Assembly: GCA_963741955.1 (NCBI GenBank)
Contig: CAVUKB010000005.1
Span: 224,001 to 288,000 of the forward strand
Reading direction: 5' to 3'
DNA length: 64,000 nucleotides
Source of the DNA: an uncultured Acidobacteriota bacterium
GTDB lineage: Bacteria > Acidobacteriota > Thermoanaerobaculia > Gp7-AA8
The translations under genes and the position numbers were made by a program. Each line of letters starts with the position of its first letter. Within the stretch, counting starts at the first letter, position 1. Shown here in pieces: positions 7,998 through 57,866 of this stretch. A model generated the notes under the pieces. It saw nothing but the letters and a program-made list of their open reading frames with translations, was not told the origin of the DNA and did no database searches.

Positions 7998-9782
7998 CTA
8001 TCGAGGAAGTGCGATTTTGGGTTCGTCGCGAGTCGCCGCTTCCTCCACCACACCCGCTTCCGGCGGCGCCTCCTCCTCGCGCTCTCGCTTCACCCGCAGG
8101 CGCGGAGCGATGATCAACGCGGCGCCGTAGAACGCAAACCCGATGAAGAGCGTCGCGGGACGGCCGGCGTGAAGGTCCTGCACGACGAGCTTCAGCGCGA
8201 TCACGATCAGAAGCAGCGGGACCAGCGTCGATGCAGCGCGAAGACGTTCTATCCGGCTGACCCATGCAAGGACGACGGCGGCAATGCAGAGAACCACCGT
8301 CTGTGTCGCGGATACGCCCGCGGGCGTCGCTCCGGATGGACCGCCGACCACGGTCATCAGCCCCGTGGTGACGAGACCCCCGATGCCCCACACAGCGATG
8401 GCAAGCGCGAGAGCTCTCGGAAAATGAGTCCGGCGACTTTCCGGAACGAGACGGGGAAGATGAGACACCGCACAGATGGCGGCGATCACCATCGCCAGGA
8501 GACCGCTCAGCCCGAGCTGACCGGCGCCGACTGAATTGGATGATCCGAAAAGACCCAACGCGCCGAATGTCAGCAGACCTGACCCCAGTGCGGCAGCGAA
8601 GAGATACCCGACGGTCTGCGCGACGAGCTCCACGCGCTGGTAGCGGATGGCGAGAATTCCGGTGACCAGTGCAATCGCGGCCCAGAGGATGCTGGCGGGA
8701 GTGGTCCCCATGAGGACCGCGGTCGAGGGAACGGTGAACGCGAGGCCGAGAATGGTGAAGTAGAACGTGTTGTGGAGGAGCCTGGTGCGGTCGACGATGC
8801 GGTATCCGATGATGTAGGCGGTCAGCGCGAGGACGACTCCGACCACGGCCACCGGCAGCTGGCCAACGTGCAGCACGTTCGAGATCCAGAGCGCTCCCCC
8901 GAATCCCGCCAGCCACGCGACGCTGCTCTGCATGATCTCGAACGCGGTGATCGCACGTTCCCTCCAGAGAGCGCGGACGGTGAACGTTCCGATGAATCCG
9001 AACATGGTCGAGATCTGCAGGATCATCGCCGCGACCGGCGCCTGCCCCACGAATCCGGCAACCACCAGAAACCCGAGGTTGATCAGAAGCATGTCGATCA
9101 CTGCGGCCACCGGCCACCTCAAGGCATGCCAGCGGATGTCGTAAGCGATCCAGGCGCTGATCAGGCCGACGACCAGCAGGGCCCATCCGAAGGGGACCAC
9201 CGAGCGGGTATCGACGATCAGAGCCAGGGAGGTGAGGAGCGCGAAGATGGTGGCCACCCACGCGAGCACCTTCTGTTCGCGGATCCATCCGATACCCAGC
9301 AGAAGTCCCGAGACCGCGGCCAGAATGATCGCGGCGGATATCGGGGAGAAGAAGTCGAACTTCTTGGTCGCTTCCCAGATCAGCGGATAAGCGATCATCG
9401 CGGCCGCGATTCCGTAGTAGTCTGATGAACTGACGCGGTCGGCACGTCCGGCACGGTCGGCCATGAAGATCCAGATGAGCGCATACGTGATTCCGAGCGA
9501 GAGACCGATCGGGAGAGGGACTCCCCCGGAATCGGTGAAGGCTCGCAGGAGAAAGGCGCCACCGAGAATGATCAGGGTTCGGCCGATCAGACCGAGGTCG
9601 AGAAGCGAGCGCGTCTCCATCTCGTCACGGGCGTCGGTGACGTGGGTGACCGTGGGTGCTGTGACACGGGAAGCGTCCGAGACCTCGTGCGCGGCCTCGA
9701 GATCGTTCACGCGGCGCTCGAGCCGCTCGAAGGCGGCGGCGAGAGTGTCGAGCCGCTGCTGAAGCTGAACTAGTTGATCCAT
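7998..9782 (-). CDS. Polytopic membrane protein, DUF2339-like
   Basis: GGAGG RBS before ATG at 9782. N-terminal coiled coil (LQQRLDTLAAAFERLERRV) followed by many transmembrane helices. Confidence 0.7.
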   Translation of the reverse strand: MDQLVQLQQRLDTLAAAFERLERRVNDLEAAHEVSDASRVTAPTVTHVTDARDEMETRSLLDLGLIGRTLIILGGAFLLRAFTDSGGVPLPIGLSLGITYALIWIFMADRAGRADRVSSSDYYGIAAAMIAYPLIWEATKKFDFFSPISAAIILAAVSGLLLGIGWIREQKVLAWVATIFALLTSLALIVDTRSVVPFGWALLVVGLISAWIAYDIRWHALRWPVAAVIDMLLINLGFLVVAGFVGQAPVAAMILQISTMFGFIGTFTVRALWRERAITAFEIMQSSVAWLAGFGGALWISNVLHVGQLPVAVVGVVLALTAYIIGYRIVDRTRLLHNTFYFTILGLAFTVPSTAVLMGTTPASILWAAIALVTGILAIRYQRVELVAQTVGYLFAAALGSGLLTFGALGLFGSSNSVGAGQLGLSGLLAMVIAAICAVSHLPRLVPESRRTHFPRALALAIAVWGIGGLVTTGLMTVVGGPSGATPAGVSATQTVVLCIAAVVLAWVSRIERLRAASTLVPLLLIVIALKLVVQDLHAGRPATLFIGFAFYGAALIIAPRLRVKREREEEAPPEAGVVEEAATRDEPKIALPR

Positions 9783-10053
9783 CAGAACCTCCGCGTGGAG
9801 AGGAGTCACTGGAGTCGATGGTGCTGATCCTGGAAAGGTTTTATGTAACGTCAGCGTGGCGGACGAGACCGTGTCGTACATCACCATATCCGGTGACCAT
9901 GAACACTGCCCCCTTCCCTTCCGAAAACGGAAGATGCCACCCAATACGAACTCCAGTTCCCGGGTCTATCGAGCGATCAACGGCGCGCTGGCCTCGCGCC
10001 GACCATCAACCTTCTGATCCCCCGGAATGCGGCCACTCCGGCGGGAAGGAGTC

Positions 10054-41431: not shown

Positions 41432-43159
41432 GTGCCACTGACGATCGATCGCGCCGCTGAAACGGCGGAGCCGGCGTCCCGGTGCCGGATCACGGCGGCG
41501 GAAGTGGCCGCTCTTCTCGCGGTCGCCGCCGCCACCGCGTTCGCTCTCGCCCACTCATGGAACCGCTGGCTCGAACCGATCATCGACAGCGGTCGCGATC
41601 TTTACGTCCCCGGTGCGATCCTCCACGGAGCGAAGCTCTACTCCGACCTCCTCTACTTCTATCCTCCGACCACGCCGTACCTCCTGGCGCTGATCACATC
41701 CGTGATCGGCCGCAGCCTCGCAGCTTACACGGCGATCGGACTCGCGTCGGCGATCACTGCTGCGGCAGTCGCGTACGGCATCGCACGACAGGCGAGCGGC
41801 TGGACCTCCGCGGTCTCGATCACACTTCTATTCGTTTCGCTCAATCTGGCGGGGGCAACCACGTGGGGAGCCAACTGGATCTTTCCCTATGCCTACACCG
41901 CCACGTTCGCGATGACCTCGCTGCTCATCGCCGTACTCTTTCTCTACCGGTTCCTCTTCGTGACTCGAGCCAGCTCGACCGGCTGGCTGGCCATGCTGTT
42001 CGCACTTCTGTCGGCCACGATGAAGATCGAGTATGCAGCGGCCGTTGCGGCACTCCTCGCGGTGTCGCTGGTCGTCTATCGTCTGCCGCTCCGCTACGCC
42101 GCCGGAATGGTGCTCGCGGGGATCGCAGCGCTCATCCTCCTCTCGATCTATTTTCACGATCCCCGTCCGGGCCACGACTGGCTCCGCGACAACGTCCTCG
42201 CGAGCTCTCTCCTTTCCGGAACGACCTCGAGATTCTTCTACGGGAGCGTCTCGGGGACGGACCGATGGGCGTCGAATCTGCGCTCCTCCCTCATCGGGCT
42301 CCTGGAGATCTCCGCGATGGCCGGCACGATCGCCATGATCGACCGGATGCGCGTTCGTTCGCGCGCCGCGACTGCGGCACTCGCGATCGTCCTCGGCGCG
42401 CTCTTCTATTTCGGCGCGGGCGAACGGTTCTTCATGGCCTGGACGCTGATCATGATCGCGCTCGTACCGTTCGCGCTTCGTGAGTGGCGATCCTCTCCGC
42501 TCCTTCTGCTGCTGACCGTCTCACTCGCCACCGCAATCCGGATCATCTTCTTCCTCGGGCCGTGGTGGTACGGCTTCGTCCTCATCATCCCGACGTACCT
42601 TCTCATCGCATACGTTCTCTTTCACTACCTCCCGAGAATGAAAATCTACTCGGAGGGAGCAGCGAAGCTGTGGGTTCTCTTCTTCGCGCTGCTCGCCATC
42701 AATGGACTCGCCCGCGCGCTTCCGGCCTGGGCAGCGAAGAGCGAACCGGTGAACAGCCGGATGGGCACGTACTACGACTATCCATACCGCGCAGTTCCGA
42801 TCGAACAGTTCCTCCGCTGGATGGAGAACCGACCCGCCGGCGAAACGCTGGTGGTGATGCCGGAGGGGCTCACGCTGAATTACCTCAGCGGGCATCCGAC
42901 GAATCTTTCATACCAGACCTTCACTCCCATCGAGATCGCCGATCCCGAGATCGAAAAGCGCATCGTCGACGAGCTTCGCCAGCGAAGACCCGATCTCGTC
43001 GCGCTGGTGACTCGAGACGTTCGTGAATTCGGATACCGAGGATTCGGAATCGACTACGGCCGCCCGGTGATCGAGTTTCTTCGCCGGGAATACCGTCCGG
43101 TCGGGACCGCGAGCTCTCCCAGGTTTCGCATACTCGTGCTGCAGAGAAATGGCGGGTGA
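41432..43159 (+). CDS. Polytopic membrane protein, GT-C glycosyltransferase-like
   Basis: DSGRDLY...LYSD...YPP first loop, many transmembrane helices, and a soluble C-terminal domain. Confidence 0.65.
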   Translation: MPLTIDRAAETAEPASRCRITAAEVAALLAVAAATAFALAHSWNRWLEPIIDSGRDLYVPGAILHGAKLYSDLLYFYPPTTPYLLALITSVIGRSLAAYTAIGLASAITAAAVAYGIARQASGWTSAVSITLLFVSLNLAGATTWGANWIFPYAYTATFAMTSLLIAVLFLYRFLFVTRASSTGWLAMLFALLSATMKIEYAAAVAALLAVSLVVYRLPLRYAAGMVLAGIAALILLSIYFHDPRPGHDWLRDNVLASSLLSGTTSRFFYGSVSGTDRWASNLRSSLIGLLEISAMAGTIAMIDRMRVRSRAATAALAIVLGALFYFGAGERFFMAWTLIMIALVPFALREWRSSPLLLLLTVSLATAIRIIFFLGPWWYGFVLIIPTYLLIAYVLFHYLPRMKIYSEGAAKLWVLFFALLAINGLARALPAWAAKSEPVNSRMGTYYDYPYRAVPIEQFLRWMENRPAGETLVVMPEGLTLNYLSGHPTNLSYQTFTPIEIADPEIEKRIVDELRQRRPDLVALVTRDVREFGYRGFGIDYGRPVIEFLRREYRPVGTASSPRFRILVLQRNGG

Positions 43160-44251: not shown

Positions 44252-44357
44252 GCTCGGGTCTGACCGTCGCGTTCAAATGCTCATTGCGACTCGTTCCAGC
44301 CGCTATTATCCGCGATCCCGCTGACATAGAATGCCGCTGGTTTTTGGGAGGACCGGA

Positions 44358-45335
44358 ATGAAACACGTGCAACCCATTTCCGTCGCGATCTACGGGCTCG
44401 GACCGATCGGCGCCGAGATCGCGAAACTGATGCTCAGGAAACCGTGGCTCAAGGTCGTCGCCGCCGTGGACATCGATCCGAACAAGGTCGGCAAGGACCT
44501 GGGCGAGGTGATCGGTACGGGACAAAAGACAGGCATCATCGTCACGAAAGAGCTCGAGACGAGGTGCGACGCGGTCTGTCACTCCACGCTGTCGCGTCTC
44601 ACCCAGGTCGAGCAGCAGCTCCTGACCCTGCTCAACAAGGGATGTCACGTCGTCTCGACCTGTGAGGAGCTCTCGTTCCCTCTCGACCCCACCATCCGCG
44701 AGAATCTCCAGCACGCCGCCCGTGCGGCGAACGTCACGCTTCTCGGCACCGGAGTCAATCCGGGGTTCGTGATGGACAAGCTTCCCCTCACCATCACGTC
44801 GGTGTGCCAGGAAGTCCGCGAGGTCAACGTCTTCCGCGTCGTCGACGCATCACTGCGCCGCGAGCCTCTGCAACGAAAAGTCGGCGCAGGCATCAGCAGA
44901 GAAGAGTTCCAGAAGCGCGTCGAAGCCGGGACGCTGAAACACATGGGGCTGAAGGAATCGCTGATGATGATCGCCGACGGGATGAACGTACATCTCGAGG
45001 AAGTCAGCGAAGAGAAGATCATGCCGATGATCGCCGATCACGAGATCACGACGCAGTACTTCAAGGTCGCACCGGGAGAGGTCGCCGGCGTGCACCAGAC
45101 GATCAGCGGAAAAGGAAAGATCGACATCAGTCTGGATATCAAAATGTACGTCGGAGCGACGGATCCCGCCGACCGGGTGGAGGTCAAAGGGATTCCCGAC
45201 GTCTCGATGGTGATCACGGGAGGAGTCCACGGAGATCGCGCGACGGCGGCGATGGCGGTGAACTCGATCCCGCGCGTCGTGGTGGCTCGGCCCGGGCTCC
45301 TGACGATGGACGACATTCCGATCAGCTACCGCTGA
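44358..45335 (+). CDS. DapB-like NAD(P)-dependent dehydrogenase (2,4-diaminopentanoate/amine dehydrogenase family)
   Basis: GGAGG RBS. GLGPIG, STCEEL, GTGVNPGFVMD and GDRATAA. Confidence 0.75.
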   Translation: MKHVQPISVAIYGLGPIGAEIAKLMLRKPWLKVVAAVDIDPNKVGKDLGEVIGTGQKTGIIVTKELETRCDAVCHSTLSRLTQVEQQLLTLLNKGCHVVSTCEELSFPLDPTIRENLQHAARAANVTLLGTGVNPGFVMDKLPLTITSVCQEVREVNVFRVVDASLRREPLQRKVGAGISREEFQKRVEAGTLKHMGLKESLMMIADGMNVHLEEVSEEKIMPMIADHEITTQYFKVAPGEVAGVHQTISGKGKIDISLDIKMYVGATDPADRVEVKGIPDVSMVITGGVHGDRATAAMAVNSIPRVVVARPGLLTMDDIPISYR

Positions 45336-45354: not shown

Positions 45355-47464
45355 TGGGTTGGACGTCCTCGTCCGATGCCCAGTGGGTTGGACGTCCCGT
45401 CCGATGCAGGGTGGCCCAGTGGGTTGGACGTCCCGTCCGATGCAGGGTGGCGTCCCGCGCCACCCTGCTCCAGGCAAGTTACGACGATCCTCCCGAGAAG
45501 AGAGACACGAACCGACCGCGGCGCGAGAGGAGCGATCCGCGTGGCGTTGTCGCCATCGCTCCCCGGCAGGATGCCGGGGAGCCTCGCGCGGGACGGCGAC
45601 CCACTTTCCCGCAACCCACTTGTTGGTTGGACGTCTCGTCCGATGCAGGGTCGCCCAGTGGGTTGGACGTCTCGTCCGATGCAGGGTGGCGTCCCGCGCC
45701 GCCCTGCTCCGCGCAAGTTACGACGATCTTCCCGAGAAGAGAGACACGAACGCCACGCCGCGCGAGAGGAACGATTCGCGTCGCGTTGACGCCATCGCTC
45801 CCCGGCAGGATGCCGGGGAGCCTCGCGCGAGACGCGCGACCCACTTTCCCGGAACCCACATGTGGGTTGGACGTCCCGTCCGATGCAGGGTGGCCCAGTG
45901 GGTTGGACGTCTCGTCCGATGCAGCGTGGCGTCCCGCGCCGCCCTGCTCCAGGCAAGTTACGACGCTCTTCCCGAGAAGAGGGACACGAACCGACCGCGG
46001 CGCGAGAGGAACGATTCGCGTCGCGTTGACGCCATCGCTCCCCGGCAGGATGCCGGGGAGCCTCGCGCGAGACGCGCGACCCACTTTCCCGCAACCCACT
46101 TGTGGGTTGGACGTCCCGTCCGATGCAGGGTGGCCCAGTGGGTTGGACGTCTCGTCCGATGCAGGGTGGCGTCCCGCGCCACCCTGCCCAGGGCAAGTTA
46201 CGACGATCCTCCCGAGAAGAGAGACACGAACGGACTGCATCGCGAGAGGAGCGATCCGCGTGGCGTTGTCGCCATCGCTCCCCGGCAGGATGCCGGGGAG
46301 CCTCGCGCGAGACGCGCGACCCACTTTCCCGCAACCCACTTGTGGGTTGGACGTCCCGTCCGATGCAGGGTGGCCCAGTGGGTTGGACGTCCCGTCCGAT
46401 GCAGGGTGGCGTCCCGCGCCACCCTGCTCCAGGCAAGTTACGACGCTCTTCCCGAGAAGAGGGACACGAACCGACCCCGGCGCGAGAGGAGCGATCCGCG
46501 TGGCGTTGTCGCCATCGCTCCACGGCAGGATGCCGGGGAGCCTCGCGCGAGACGCGCGACCCACTTTCCCGCGACCCACATGTGGGTTGGACGTCTCGTC
46601 CGATGCAGGGTGGCGTCCCGCGCCACCCTGCTCCAGGCAAGTTACGACGATCCTCCCGAGAAGAGAGACACGAACGGACTGCATCGCGAGAGGAGCGATC
46701 CGCGTGGCGTTGTCGCCATCGCTCCCCGGCAGGATGCCGGGGAGCCTCGCGCGAGACGCGCGACCCACTATGCAGCGTGGCGTCCCGCGCCGCCCTGCTC
46801 CGCGCAAGTTACGACGATCCTCCCGAGAAGAGAGACACGAACGGACTGCATCGCGAGAGGAGCGATCCGCGTGGCGTTGAGGCCATCGCTCCCCGGCAGG
46901 ATGTCGGGGAGCCTCGCGCGAGACGCGCGACCCACTTTCCCGCGACCCACTTGTGGGTTGGACTTCCCGTCCGATGCAGGGTGGCCCAGTGGGTTGGACG
47001 TCTCGTCCGATGCAGGGTGGCGTCCCGCGCCGCCCTGCCCAGGGCAAGTTGCCACGATCCTCCCGAGAAGAGAGACACGAACGGACTGCATCGCGAGAGG
47101 AGCGATCCGCGTGGCGTTGTCGCCATCGCTCCCCGGCAGGATGCCGGGGAGCCTCGCGCGAGACGCGCGACCCACTTTCCCGCGACCCACATGTGGGTTG
47201 GACGTCTCGTCCGATGCAGGGTGGCCCAGTGGGTTGGACGTCTCGTCCGATGCAGGGTGGCGTCCCGCGCCACCCTGCTCCAGGCAAGTTACGACGATCC
47301 TCCCGAGAAGAGAGACACGAACGGACTGCATCGCGAGAGGAGCGATCCGCGTGGCGTTGTCGCCATCGCTCCCCGGCAGGATGCCGGGGAGCCTCGCGCG
47401 GGATGCGCGACCCACTTTGATGCGCGACCCACCACGATGTGCGACCGACTTGCGTGGGTCGCGA
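45355..47464. repeat. Tandem array B: 9 hairpin-rich units, mostly 240 bp (REP/BIME-like)
   Basis: The landmark CGGCAGGATG occurs at 45564, 45803, 46043, 46283, 46523, 46727, 46894, 47134 and 47374 (spacings 239, 240, 240, 240, 204, 167, 240, 240). There is an internal 36-bp sub-repeat. Confidence 0.95.
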
Positions 47465-47471
47465 GTTGCGG

Positions 47472-48737
47472 CTACTTGCCGAGATATTTCAGCATCTCGC
47501 GCGCGGATCCCGCTTCGGGATCTTTCGGCGCGAGCTCGAGAAACTTCTCGAGATCACTCCTGGCCTGAGCATTCGCTCCCGACCCCGCCTCGATGACACC
47601 GAGGTAGTAGTACGCCTGAGGGTAACTCGGATCGACCTTCAGAGCCTTCCGGAAACGGTCACCCGAGACCTTCAGGTCATTCGCGTCGTACGCTTCGAAC
47701 GCGAGCTGGAGCAGTCCGTCACGCGCGATCTTCGGCTCGTACGGCGCGAGATCGGCGAGCGCATCGACGAGACGCTTCTTGTCTCCCAGTCCGAGTGCCG
47801 CGTTGTAACGCAGACGGATCGCCTGCTCGTTCTTCGGGTCGGCCTTCAGCACCGATTCCGCCGCGTCGAGTGCTTCACGGTACCGTCCGATCTTCTCCGC
47901 AGCCGTCGCGAGCCCGAACAGCGCTTCCTGCAGATTCGGATCGAGATTCAGAGCCTCCTGGAACTTCGCGAACGCTCCCGCAGGATCTCCCGTCTTCAGG
48001 AGTTCGACCCCATCATTGTGAAACTTCTTGGCCTCTTCCTTCGCTCGTCCGATCTTTTCGAGGTCCTTCTGAGCCTCGGCGGCCTTCTCGTCGTTCTTCA
48101 GATTCTTGTACGCTTTCCACCGGTCGAGATACACCGACTCTTCAGTGGAACCGAGCGCGATCGCCTTCTCGGCCGCCGCCGCCGCGACGTCGTTCTGTCC
48201 CAGGGCCAGCTCCGCCGACGTCAGGACTTCCCACGCCTGAACCAGCCTCGGGTCGTGCTCCGTCGCCTCACGCAGTTTTTGCACCGCCGTCGCATAGTCG
48301 TTCGCCTTGAACGCAGCAAGACCGGCGTTGTAAGCCTCGACCGCGGGCTCGTTCGTGGATGTTGGTGGGGCGACCGCTCCCGGCGGCACGGCTTCGGCGG
48401 TAGCGAGAGGCATCTTCCATTCGAAGAAGCCGTCGCCTTCGGTCTTCCACTCCTGATTCACCTCGACCGTCTGGTATCCGGCCTTCTCGAATCGGTAGTG
48501 GTAGGTCACTCCGGCTTTCCGGAAATCGACCACGAATACGCCTTTCGCGTTCGTGGTTTCGACGTCATGGAAGCCGGACACGTCCGGGGACGTCACCGTC
48601 ACCATCACTCCCTCGATGGCCTTGCCATCGGGATCGACAATCTTTCCCGTGAGCCGTCCCACGCGCTGCGCGAGGACGAGCGACGGGAGCAGAATCAGCA
48701 GGAGTGGAAGCCATGCAAATTTGCGCAGGGCAGGCAT
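47472..48737 (-). CDS. Secreted protein: carboxypeptidase-regulatory-like domain plus TPR repeats
   Basis: Signal peptide, GRLTGKIVDPDGKAIEGV, and TPR helices (AYYYLGV, FLELAP). Confidence 0.85.
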   Translation of the reverse strand: MPALRKFAWLPLLLILLPSLVLAQRVGRLTGKIVDPDGKAIEGVMVTVTSPDVSGFHDVETTNAKGVFVVDFRKAGVTYHYRFEKAGYQTVEVNQEWKTEGDGFFEWKMPLATAEAVPPGAVAPPTSTNEPAVEAYNAGLAAFKANDYATAVQKLREATEHDPRLVQAWEVLTSAELALGQNDVAAAAAEKAIALGSTEESVYLDRWKAYKNLKNDEKAAEAQKDLEKIGRAKEEAKKFHNDGVELLKTGDPAGAFAKFQEALNLDPNLQEALFGLATAAEKIGRYREALDAAESVLKADPKNEQAIRLRYNAALGLGDKKRLVDALADLAPYEPKIARDGLLQLAFEAYDANDLKVSGDRFRKALKVDPSYPQAYYYLGVIEAGSGANAQARSDLEKFLELAPKDPEAGSAREMLKYLGK

Positions 48738-48977
48738 TGCAGTCACCTCTCTCGATCTTTCAGTCTCTCTTTCATATGTCATCCTGGGAGACGTGCCGAG
48801 GGTACGAACTCTCAGGCACGCAGCCCGCGTGCCGTCGGCGGAAACGCGTCTGCGCCGCCGAGGCGGGGTGTCACGATTTCGGAAATGACGGATGAGACGA
48901 CAGAATTCCCGACGGCCGGCCGCACGCATCCGGCCGCCGACAGGGCCGAATGGCCAGTTTACCGGACGGAGGCATGG

Positions 48978-49385
48978 ATGACGACGCACCGACTCACTCC
49001 AATCGCTTTGATTTTCTCGCTTCTGGGCACGATTCTGATCGCTTGTGTTTCTTCGCCACGGGCGACGAATGCGGCGCCGACCTGCTTCGATTCCACGTGG
49101 ATCCAGAGCCTGTCCCCGCTCGGTGACCGATTCGTCTATGCGCGGGTCGGCACCAACCAGTCCTATCTCCTGACTCTGAACGTCGTCGATCCGAACCTCG
49201 ACGCGGCCCTCGGCTTCACGATCTCGGGCGATCTGAACCGGGTCTGTTCCGACGGCGGCTCGCTGCTCACCTACACCGCCGCAGGGCACTCCACCATCGC
49301 TCGCATCACCGACGTTGAGAAGGTCGACAATTTCGAGGAAGCGCGAAAGCTCGCGGAACGGCGGAGTGGTGGACGAACGAAATGA
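48978..49385 (+). CDS. Small lipoprotein (DUF6491-like)
   Basis: GGAGG RBS, lipobox LIAC, and a CF...SYLLTL...RVC pattern. Confidence 0.65.
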   Translation: MTTHRLTPIALIFSLLGTILIACVSSPRATNAAPTCFDSTWIQSLSPLGDRFVYARVGTNQSYLLTLNVVDPNLDAALGFTISGDLNRVCSDGGSLLTYTAAGHSTIARITDVEKVDNFEEARKLAERRSGGRTK

Positions 49386-49460
49386 AGTGAGCAGCTTCGC
49401 AACTTCCATTTCAGCGCCGGGAGTCCGGACGGCGGGACTGTTCCTCTCATGCCGGCTTCT

Positions 49461-53226: not shown

Positions 53227-54720
53227 AGTGGGTTGGACGTCCCGTCCGATGCTCAGTGGGTTGGACGTCCCGTCCGATGCTCAGTGGGTTGGACGTCCCG
53301 TCCGATGCAGGGCGGCGTCCCGCGCCGCCCTGCTCCAGGCCGGGCTACGACGATCCTCGCCGAGAAGAGAGCCAGGAACCGACCGCGGCGCGAGAGGTAC
53401 GAGCCGCGTATCGTTGATGCCATCGCTCCCCGGCAGGATGCCGGGGAGCCTCGCGCGAGACGCGCGACCCACTTTGGAGGGCGGCGTCCCGCGCCGCCCT
53501 GCTCAGGGCAAGCTACGACGATCCTCCCGAGTAGAGAGACACGAACGCACCGCGGCGCGAGAGGTACGAGCCGCGTGTCGTTGATGCCATCGCTCCCCGG
53601 CAGGATGCCGGGGAGCCTCGCGCGGGACGCGCGACCCACTTGTGGGTTGGACGTCCCGTCCGATGCTCAGTGGGTTGGACGTCCCGTCCGATGCAGGGCG
53701 GCGTCCCGCGCCGCCCTGCTCCAGGGCAAGTCACGACGATCCTCGCCGAGAAGAGAGGCAGGAACCGACCGCGGCGCGAGAGGTACGATTCGCGTGGCGT
53801 TGATGCCATCGCTCCCCGGCAGGATGCCGGGGAGCCTCGCGCGGGACGCGCGACCCACTTGTGGGTTGGACGTCCCGTCCGATGCTCAGTGGGTTGGACG
53901 TCCCGTCCGATGCAGGGCGGCGTCCCGCGCCGCCCTGCTCAGGGCAAGTCACGACGATCTTCGCCGAGAAGAGAGACGCGAACCGACCGCATCGCGAGAG
54001 GTACGATTCGCGTGGCGTTGATGCCATCGCTCCCCGGCAGGATGCCGGGGAGCCTCGCGCGGGACGCGCGACCCACTTTGCAGGGCGGCGTCCCGCGCCG
54101 CCCTGCTCAGGGCAAGTCACGACGATCTTCGCCGAGAAGAGAGGCAGGAACCGACCGCATCGCGAGAGGTACGATTCGCGTGGCGTTGATGCCATCGCTC
54201 CCCGGCAGGATGCCGGGGAGCCTCGCGCGGGACGCGCGACCCACTTGTGGGTTGGACGTCCCGTCCGATGCTCAGTGGGTTGGACGTCCCGTCCGATGCA
54301 GGGTGGCGTCCCGCGCCGCCCTGCTCCAGGGCGGGCTACGACGATCCTCCCGAGTAGAGAGACACGAACGCACCGCGGCGCGAGAGGTACGAGCCGCGTG
54401 TCGTTGATGCCATCGCTCCCCGGCAGGATGCCGGGGAGCCTCGCGCGAGACGCGCGACCCACTTTGCAGGGCGGCGTCCCGCGCCGCCCTGCTCCAGGGC
54501 GGGCTACGACGATCCTCGCCGAGAAGAGAGGCAGGAACCGACCGCGGCGCGAGAGGTACGATTCGCGTGGCGTTGATGCCATCGCTCCCCGGCAGGATGC
54601 CGGGAGCCTCGCGCGGGACGCGCGACCCACTTACGCGCGACCCACTTACGCGCGACCCACTTACGCGCGACCCACTTACGCGCGACTCACTTACGCGCGA
54701 CCCACTTGCGCCGCCCTGCC
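53227..54720. repeat. Tandem array C: 7 units of the array B family, with 28-bp and 15-bp terminal micro-arrays
   Basis: Landmark at 53431, 53598, 53817, 54035, 54203, 54421 and 54590 (spacings ~168 or ~218). A 28-bp unit x3 at 53228 and ACGCGCGACCCACTT x6 at 54618-54707. Confidence 0.95.

Positions 54721-54986: not shown

Positions 54987-57866
<2,880 letters not shown>

Follow-up and report, generated by a model that had tools for sequence, protein, structure and literature searches.

REP sequences and a tandem array in an acidobacterial genome

The closest described relatives of the locus considered here belong to the GTAG superfamily of repetitive extragenic palindromic (REP) sequences. 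Di Nocera (2013, PMC3733652) describes GTAG-tagged REPs across eight phyla, with an unpaired 5' tetranucleotide head, a stem of 6-9 bp and a pyrimidine-rich loop of 2-3 nt that often fits TY, and reports a GTGG variant of the head in Opitutus terrae. According to the same account, REPs form head-outward dimers, often heterodimers, around conserved spacers that are typically 20-100 bp long and in some cases carry a stem-loop at each end; there are large clusters of tandemly reiterated dimers, and most REPs lie downstream of genes, between convergent or unidirectional open reading frames (ORFs). The locus itself is a 2.1-kb tandem array (array A) at positions 45355-47464 of a 64,000-nt stretch of DNA from an uncultured Acidobacteriota bacterium (Thermoanaerobaculia, Gp7-AA8; assembly GCA_963741955.1, contig CAVUKB010000005.1, positions 224,001 to 288,000), a stretch referred to throughout as the window. 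By analogy with the described systems, this array is probably a cluster of REP-type elements resembling a bacterial interspersed mosaic element (BIME), linked to a REP-associated tyrosine transposase (RAYT) and tandemly amplified.

Two further bodies of work frame the comparison. Corneloup (2021, PMC8266576) reports that short perfect REPs are recognised by the transposase TnpA-REP through the loop and the head, that cleavage takes place at a CT near the hairpin, and that in one system a change of GTAG to GTGG shifted cleavage to CC. In Pseudomonas fluorescens SBW25, according to Bertels & Rainey (2011, PMC3116915), two REP types are arranged in highly ordered tandem arrays with spacings of 112 and 72 bp, several to a genome, the largest of which consist of 12 GI and GIII sequences. 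The same paper presents REPINs (REP doublets forming hairpins) as two inverted REPs and a spacer, with proposed mobility in trans by a single-copy RAYT.

One head and one loop on two unrelated stems

The units of array A contain four hairpins, with the sequences that the first-pass annotation of the window had quoted; the core at 46771 lacks the preceding first hairpin. On the plus strand, H1 reads GTGGG-TTGGACG-TCY-CGTCCGA, and on the minus strand H4 reads GTGGG-TCGCGCG-TCY-CGCGCGA, each spanning 22 nt, with 7 bp in the stem and 3 nt in the loop. The two lie on opposite strands with their heads outward and have the GTGGG head and TCY loop in common, on stems (TTGGACG vs TCGCGCG) that are unrelated. 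The spacer between them is 143 nt long and holds a headless TCC-loop hairpin beside each of the two: H2, GCAGGGTGGCG-TCCCG-CGCCACCCTGC, and H3, which on the minus strand is CTCCCCGGCA-TCC-TGCCGGGGAG.

The shared grammar exceeds what chance would give. The pattern GTGGGT-N5-GTCYC-N5-A has 36 matches in the window, all of them within array A and a second, sister array (array C), vs none in each of 100 shuffles, and the GTGG(G) head is present in all 36; the proposal that H1 and H4 combine unrelated stems with one head and loop is thus borne out. Searched for with at most three mismatches, H1 occurs 24 times (22 exact), always on the plus strand, with 15 copies in array A and nine in array C (53228-54296). 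H4 occurs 15 times (14 exact), always on the minus strand, eight times in array A and seven in array C; the ninth H4 of array A, in core A1, went unmatched in this search owing to a 1-nt deletion. Within the H1 and H4 stems, 100% of alignment cells pair. A wider search of the window for head-plus-hairpin elements found 38, of which 37 are in the arrays and the single outsider looks like chance.

Folding of one unit gave z-scores against shuffles of -6.05 and -5.46 on the two strands. The unit folds as four separate hairpins, and only the outer heads pair with each other, over 7-8 nt, closing the unit. A T.G pair in H1 (12 of 12 copies) becomes an A.C mismatch on the opposite strand, so that H1 folds best on the strand that bears its head.

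The same grammar beside transposase genes in other genomes

Contigs were scanned with a degenerate pattern that merges H1 and H4, yielding at least 84 matches at a minimum of 72 loci, an arbitrary sample; the source genome of the window is not among the loci listed. Among the matches listed, 68 of 84 read GTGGG-TCGGGCG-TC[TC]-CGCCCGA, and the metagenome-assembled genomes (MAGs) concerned are labelled WOR-3, Phycisphaerae, other Planctomycetota, Ignavibacteria, Chloroflexia, Dehalococcoidia, Verrucomicrobiota, Victivallales and Armatimonadota, among others. Of the 72 loci listed, 19 have one or more pairs of elements that face head-outward on two different stems, mostly with spacers of 5-28 nt. 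The 70 non-redundant loci listed (556,502 bases) contain 31 further GT[GA]GG-N7-TCY-N7' elements with 10 distinct stems outside the scan pattern, where the reversed control and each of 20 shuffles gave none. A head and loop that are kept while the stems change yet stay complementary form the pattern expected of a protein-read hairpin.

In a motif screen of the listed loci and the window, two independent Y1 genes were found between GT[GA]GG hairpins. The first lies at L072 4507-4974, in a Dehalococcoidia MAG. On NF047646, 'REP-associated tyrosine transposase', it reaches 131.5 bits against a cut-off of 80, and on PF01797 (Y1_Tnp) it reaches 42.1 bits; the sole PDB match of its protein is TnpArep 4er8 (E 4.4e-7), and all 71 of its 71 relatives have PF01797, three of these having received the name RayT or REP-associated tyrosine transposase from their sources. 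Three GTAGG-ACGGGCA-TCT hairpins lie upstream of this gene, and a GTGGG-TCGGGCG-TCT hairpin lies downstream on the other strand. The second, L050 5400-6095, comes from a MAG of 72% GC; its PF01797 score is 32.2 bits, against a cut-off of 23, and clusters of 66-nt heterodimers repeated at a 77-nt period lie on either side of it. The first-pass annotation had suggested looking for a Y1/HUH gene flanked by GTGGG-hairpins, and Y1 genes between hairpins of the shared grammar are found in these two other genomes, not in the 64-kb window. The grammar shared by H1 and H4, together with the RAYT genes that it flanks elsewhere, argues for reading array A as a BIME-like cluster, built of REP heterodimers with their heads outward.

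Some other loci from the scan deserve mention in their own right. Two genes considered as RAYT candidates, L047 1555-2064 (minus strand) and L059 3658-4248 (plus strand), proved to be of IS200/IS605 type instead (67.8 and 68.4 bits, cut-off 55) and were left out of the count of REPtrons, RAYT genes flanked by their own REPs; they stand about 2.9 kb and 0.7 kb, respectively, from REP doublets in two Phycisphaerae MAGs. Eight of the 84 listed matches, a GTCCGA variant in actinobacterial records, share one conserved, coding-looking context and were treated as chance and left unused. L019, L045, L050 and L051 are labelled 'uncultured Enterobacteriaceae' yet have 71-73% G+C, a label that looks doubtful.

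REPs are usually described as lineage-specific. MAGs whose labels span at least seven phyla have nearly the same 22-nt REP, GTGGG-TCGGGCG-TCY-CGCCCGA, usually within a head-outward heterodimer of 49-72 bp (for example L014 5001-5066, L022 4953-5022 and L029 4974-5022). Such a distribution suggests either a widely shared RAYT clade or horizontal spread.

Comparison with described systems

Likeness to the GTAG-superfamily REPs, as described by Di Nocera (2013), extends to the GTGG head, the short stem-loop, the head-outward heterodimers, the structured spacers, the tandem dimers and the location 3' of genes. What differs here is the presence of 9- and 7-unit arrays, the extra tandem half-hairpin modules and the Thermoanaerobaculia-like acidobacterial host, so called from the nearest named relatives of the window's TypA, which are Thermoanaerobaculia (Acidobacteriota) at ~82% identity. 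With BIMEs the array shares the inverse orientation of its two REPs (H1 plus, H4 minus) with linkers between them, and consecutive tandem copies, nine and seven in the two arrays. Compared with E. coli BIMEs as presented in PMC8266576 and PMC2817692, the array has a far longer and structured long linker, its REPs belong with the short perfect palindromes (group-3-like) rather than the bulged ones, and the head is GTGGG, not GTAG.

The SBW25 GI-GIII arrays (PMC3116915) offer a close parallel, with two REP types in tandem and both a long and a short spacing. In the acidobacterial arrays the REPs are spaced by 143 nt and by 2-17 nt, module number makes the period range from 167 to 240 nt, the two REPs are mutually inverted, and the phylum is another one. 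The first-pass annotation had put the locus forward as the best candidate for an undescribed system, a view that gives way before the published record, since tandem arrays of two REP types and about 2 kb are described for SBW25 in PMC3116915.

The resemblance to REPINs goes as far as two inverted REPs and a spacer. In a REPIN sensu Bertels & Rainey the two REPs make a single long hairpin, whereas the unrelated stems of H1 and H4 cannot pair and only the 7-8-nt heads do, so the array is not a strict REPIN. Of the earlier proposal of a REPIN/BIME-like family, the BIME-like part therefore holds, given that the same grammar flanks RAYT genes in two genomes and the layout is as published, and the REPIN part in its strict sense does not. 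An IS200/IS605-derived miniature element (PATE) was also considered and rejected, such elements needing subterminal hairpins on the same strand, whereas H1 is found only on the plus and H4 only on the minus strand. With the REPtrons of L072 and L050 the array shares the GT[GA]GG head, the 7-bp stem and the TCT/TCC loop, and with L050 also tandem heterodimers. The dimers of these REPtrons are 54-66 nt long, with 10-22-nt spacers, and stand beside the RAYT gene, whereas the units in the window measure about 190-240 nt and the window has no RAYT.

The REP pair itself appears to be new. In the literature, the 17-mers of the hairpins had no match, and among the 12-mer matches listed the papers were unrelated by title, a riboswitch template among them being a coincidence. 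The H1 and H4 motifs are absent from four text supplements of Di Nocera (2013). Whole units compared by blastn with the 72 scan loci listed and the rest of the window matched in the REP hairpins only, with no match to the spacer.

Layout of the arrays and variation among copies

Array A lies between convergent genes, as had been noted, and the existence of the array was confirmed with Tandem Repeats Finder, which reports a period of 240 nt repeated 5.1 times at 45383-46614 (93% matches) and 2.7 times at 46770-47418, with nested periods of 36, 167 and 204 nt. The 240-bp unit of the first-pass annotation needs qualification. Parsing by anchors shows that the real repeat is a core of 167 nt (n=9), in the order H2, central stretch, H3, H4 in both arrays, and that seven of the nine full units measure 240 nt, the remaining ones 189 and 182 nt. 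This difference in period follows from the varying number of flanking modules. Taking the two arrays together, from none to three H1 modules precede a core and from none to five extra 15-nt half-copies of H4 follow it; in array A, zero, one or two H1 modules stand before the core. The 36-nt H1 module of array A also duplicates the initial 11 nt of the core, and most array A cores are trailed by a 15-nt module that amounts to a degenerate H4 head and 5' half-stem. Linkers are 143 nt within the unit and 2 or 17 nt from unit to unit. A protein-coding reading of the arrays was rejected, the unit lengths of 167, 182, 189 and 240 nt (167-169 in array C) breaking the reading frame. Table 1 gives the positions of all parts.

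Table 1. Positions in the window of arrays A and C, their component modules and the genes flanking array A
Feature	Position	Strand
Array A, 9 tandem units, spans the full gap between the stop codons of the convergent genes	45355..47464	.
Leftmost H1 module of array A, degenerate, with TGGG head and TCCT loop	45355..45382	+
H1 pair: 36-nt module, then 22-nt H1 GTGGG-TTGGACG-TCC-CGTCCGA	45383..45440	+
Same H1 pair before further array A cores	45622, 45862, 46102, 46342, 46953, 47193	+
Lone H1 before core A6	46582-46603	+
Core A1 (H2, spacer, H3, H4; 1-nt deletion in H4)	45441..45606	.
Core A2, 167 nt	45680..45846	.
Core A3, 167 nt	45920..46086	.
Core A4, 167 nt	46160..46326	.
Core A5, 167 nt	46400..46566	.
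Core A6, 167 nt; abuts core A7 without R or L module	46604..46770	.
Core A7, 167 nt; no H1 in front	46771..46937	.
Core A8, 167 nt	47011..47177	.
Core A9, 167 nt	47251..47417	.
R module, 15 nt, TCCCGCRACCCACWT on the plus strand; degenerate H4 head and 5' half-stem	45607..45621	-
R module recurrences in array A	45847, 46087, 46327, 46567, 46938, 47178	-
Right edge of array A: degenerate R modules and short inverted GTGGGTCGCGAG; 6 nt from the stop codon of the minus-strand gene	47418..47466
Upstream flanking gene, DAP_DH_C / DapB_N domains, converges on array A	44331..45335	+
Downstream flanking gene, TPR repeats and CarboxypepD_reg, converges on array A	47472..49409	-
Array C, sister of array A, same orientation, 7 cores of 167-169 nt	53228..54707	.
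Array C core starts	53306, 53475, 53692, 53911, 54079, 54297, 54465
Three tandem H1 modules (28-nt period), start of array C	53228..53305	+
Five tandem 15-mers ACGCGCGACCCACTT, end of array C	54633..54707	-

Array C stands 3' of one minus-strand gene and about 490 nt upstream of the next. The 15-mers at its end read AAGTGGGTCGCGCGT on the minus strand, that is, an H4 head and 5' half-stem cut in the loop. The short tandem modules terminate within or next to a hairpin loop: the H4 15-mers stop after GCGT and the 36-nt H1 module of array A stops just before the loop of H2. Breakage at the tip of the hairpin, or template switching there, might leave such ends. A similar habit is seen in loci from WOR-3 MAGs (L001, L006, L007, L010, L012, L024, L028, L035, L043 and L071), where tandem half-copies consisting of a head and 5' half-stem, for example GTGGGTCGGGCGTCATG, lie upstream of the full hairpin.

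Identity among cores is 93% within an array and 89% from one array to the other. In the core alignment, 46 of 166 columns vary, 36 of the 46 lying in the central spacer between H2 and H3. Variant blocks are distributed as a mosaic among the copies; core A3, for instance, combines the left part of A5 with the right part of A2. Such shuffling is expected of unequal exchange within a tandem array.

Gene predictions point to further arrays. Translations of three units, used as queries against protein collections, found seven matches in one search and 13 among 1.84 billion representatives in another. One of these, P0199, is array A read through as a 730-residue ORF (window 45404-47593, plus strand), and 12 other predicted ORFs, encoded outside the window, have recognisable H1, H2, H3 and H4 with different spacers. 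Six of the 12 appear to represent further, diverged arrays on the window's own contig or chromosome. From its second codon positions, P0203 seems to imply an H1 stem of TTGGGCG/CGCCCGA, which would be a compensatory change from A-T to G-C. Across the ORF translations, conservation, roughly gauged, is highest in H3-H4, in the region of the H2 loop and in a purine-rich island of the spacer, GCGAGAGG, and lowest in the flanking modules.

Weighing the alternatives

Several observations sit uneasily with a RAYT-linked, BIME-like cluster. All 39 copies of H1 and H4 in 64 kb belong to two intergenic arrays, without the usual scatter of singlets and dimers, and the spacer of 143 nt exceeds the 20-100 bp usual for GTAG-superfamily REPs in the account of Di Nocera (2013). 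The conserved GCGAGAGG island, kept in the diverged arrays, is left unexplained by a REP model. A search of all frames of the 64-kb window for a Y1_Tnp or RAYT (hmmsearch --max, E<=10, with a profile derived from L072 and L050) came back empty, and the L050 protein reaches 62.6 bits on NF047646, under the cut-off of 80. Finally, Di Nocera (2013, PMC3733652) describes the Y1 transposases of cultured Acidobacteria as flanked by long inverted repeats, not by REPs.

The spacer invites a more ambitious view, in which the unit would be a lineage-specific composite of four hairpins whose 143-nt spacer, with its GCGAGAGG island, is a functional module (a protein-binding or an RNA element); the composite would have been amplified into satellite-like arrays of kilobase size at many loci of one genome, with a RAYT clade recognising GTGGG and TCY to maintain it. 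This is a tentative proposal, and on balance we doubt it.

The arrays might alternatively be a REP-derived satellite without a living transposase, growing and shrinking only by unequal recombination and slippage, with the RAYT either lost or never active on them. The confinement of all window copies to arrays, with no singlets, the mosaic copies and variable module numbers, which fit recombination and slippage, and the lack of a RAYT in the window would all suit such a history, and the loss of REPtrons by deletion is on record (Di Nocera 2013, PMC3733652). Set against this is the state of the hairpins. Head and loop are intact in 22 of 24 H1 and 14 of 15 H4 copies, and they are kept as well in the diverged arrays indicated by ORF translations, where the spacer drifts, which suggests a continuing constraint on the features that a RAYT reads. 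Gene conversion alone could yield the same conservation of head and loop within one array. We consider a satellite of this kind unlikely.

Might the units instead be genes for structured non-coding RNAs in tandem, or might they form a structured module of a 3' untranslated region (3'-UTR)? The hairpins would then be RNA elements under selection, for example small RNAs (sRNAs) with CU-rich loops read from the minus strand. The strong folding is in keeping with this, in H1 and H2 the G.T pairs speak for one strand over the other, and a conserved CGCG/CGCG stem carries a 12-nt loop reading CUCCUCU on the minus strand; many REPs, moreover, are argued by Di Nocera (2013, PMC3733652) to act as RNA. 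CU-rich runs, CUCCUCUC and CUCUCUUCUC, are also found on the minus strand of the spacer. The first-pass annotation had offered a tandem structured-RNA array as one of two options and had noted covarying stems, in particular an H2 pair that appears as T-A, T.G and C-G. That pair was confirmed in the alignment of 16 units from arrays A and C (C-G in six cores, T-A in five, T.G in five), and the covarying stems come down to this one position: of the 37 hairpin pairs, 31 are invariant and just one, this H2 position, changes on both sides, a value equalled in 27 of 500 shuffles. RNAalifold recovers the four hairpins with covariation terms of +0.17 kcal/mol on the plus and -0.29 kcal/mol on the minus strand. 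The copies are so alike (93% within and 89% between arrays) that the test is weak and its power low.

Other lines of evidence also go against an RNA. The H2 pair is broken in five of 16 copies when read on the minus strand, H1 and H2 indicate one strand and H3 and H4 the opposite one, no promoter-like site was found, and the copy number of modules varies at the DNA level. An Rfam 15 scan of the window produced no match at the gathering score, and relaxing it to E<=1 added nothing usable. One of 16 units (45989-46073, minus strand) gives a weak full-length match to the sRNA family CcsR1, with 22.5 bits vs a gathering score of 65.3 and an E of 0.014, which we judge to be chance. A tandem structured-RNA array thus finds little in its favour and is improbable.

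A miniature inverted-repeat element with GTGGGT termini, mobilised by a DDE transposase and repeatedly inserted next to itself, would read the TT or AT between units as a target duplication. In array C, head-outward GTGGGT ends are indeed separated by TT, and in the fold the unit is closed by pairing between its heads. The inverted similarity is nevertheless limited to the 6-nt head and the loop, on stems that differ, and the genes that this grammar flanks elsewhere are of the Y1 and not the DDE type, which makes such an element very improbable. Nor is a duplicated target visible at the array edges, and a Pfam scan of 31 ORFs picked by third-position G+C content (GC3) plus 47472-49409, which was not a six-frame search, found no transposase domain. 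An assembly artefact that mis-called tandem copy number in either direction is easily imagined for short reads and tandem repeats about 93% identical, and is scarcely credible here because copies differ in a mosaic pattern at 46 of 166 core columns, a judgement to which the two arrays, the further diverged ones and an apparent 1.47 Mb contig add weight.

Other repeats and reading frames of the window

A third, unrelated tandem array occupies 1044-2790 of the window. It has a 201-nt unit repeated 6.9 times (96% matches) with three ATTTGCGCG motifs per unit on the plus strand, followed by 88- and 61-nt repeats; at 2555 the motif occurs once in inverted orientation. This array has no head-plus-hairpin grammar, no similarity to arrays A and C, and no match among the loci listed (at least 72). 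A 216-nt tandem repeat (2.7 copies, 57263-57844) lies within a P-type ATPase gene (54987-57866, minus strand) and coincides with repeated YHS metal-binding domains (three Pfam stretches), identifying it as a coding repeat. Two long ORFs, 7998-9944 (minus strand, 648 aa) and 41432-43159 (plus strand, 575 aa), have coding-like GC3 and no Pfam match at E<=1e-5.

Origin of the arrays and significance

Returning to the BIME-like cluster, a plausible route to its present form can be sketched. H1 on the plus strand and H4 on the minus strand are best seen as two REP types of the GTAG superfamily, with the GTGG(G) variant of the head, that form a head-outward heterodimer. Each REP, when single-stranded, would by analogy be a substrate of a RAYT (TnpA-REP, a Y1 HUH enzyme) encoded elsewhere in the genome, and an enzyme reading head and loop would tolerate different stems. 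The RAYT would account for the origin and spread of the dimer. The kilobase size of the arrays would be secondary, arising by tandem amplification of the dimer, after which unequal recombination or gene conversion would have shuffled the copies and local slippage or breakage would have altered the number of H1 modules and H4 15-mers.

A cognate RAYT in the source genome, cleavage of the REPs by it and a function for the host are what we would infer from the described systems. Lying downstream of genes, the array is probably co-transcribed into their 3' ends, and by analogy such arrays could work as REPs do elsewhere, as hairpin barriers.

This is no new kind of system. At the strength given above, the array extends the REP/BIME class to a Thermoanaerobaculia-like acidobacterium and represents an extreme case of it, with a structured spacer of 143 nt and arrays of 2 kb. 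It also bears on annotation, since public gene calls render such arrays as spurious proteins as long as 730 residues. The grammar of head plus loop provides a compact search key for the cognate RAYT, both in this phylum and in other poorly studied ones.

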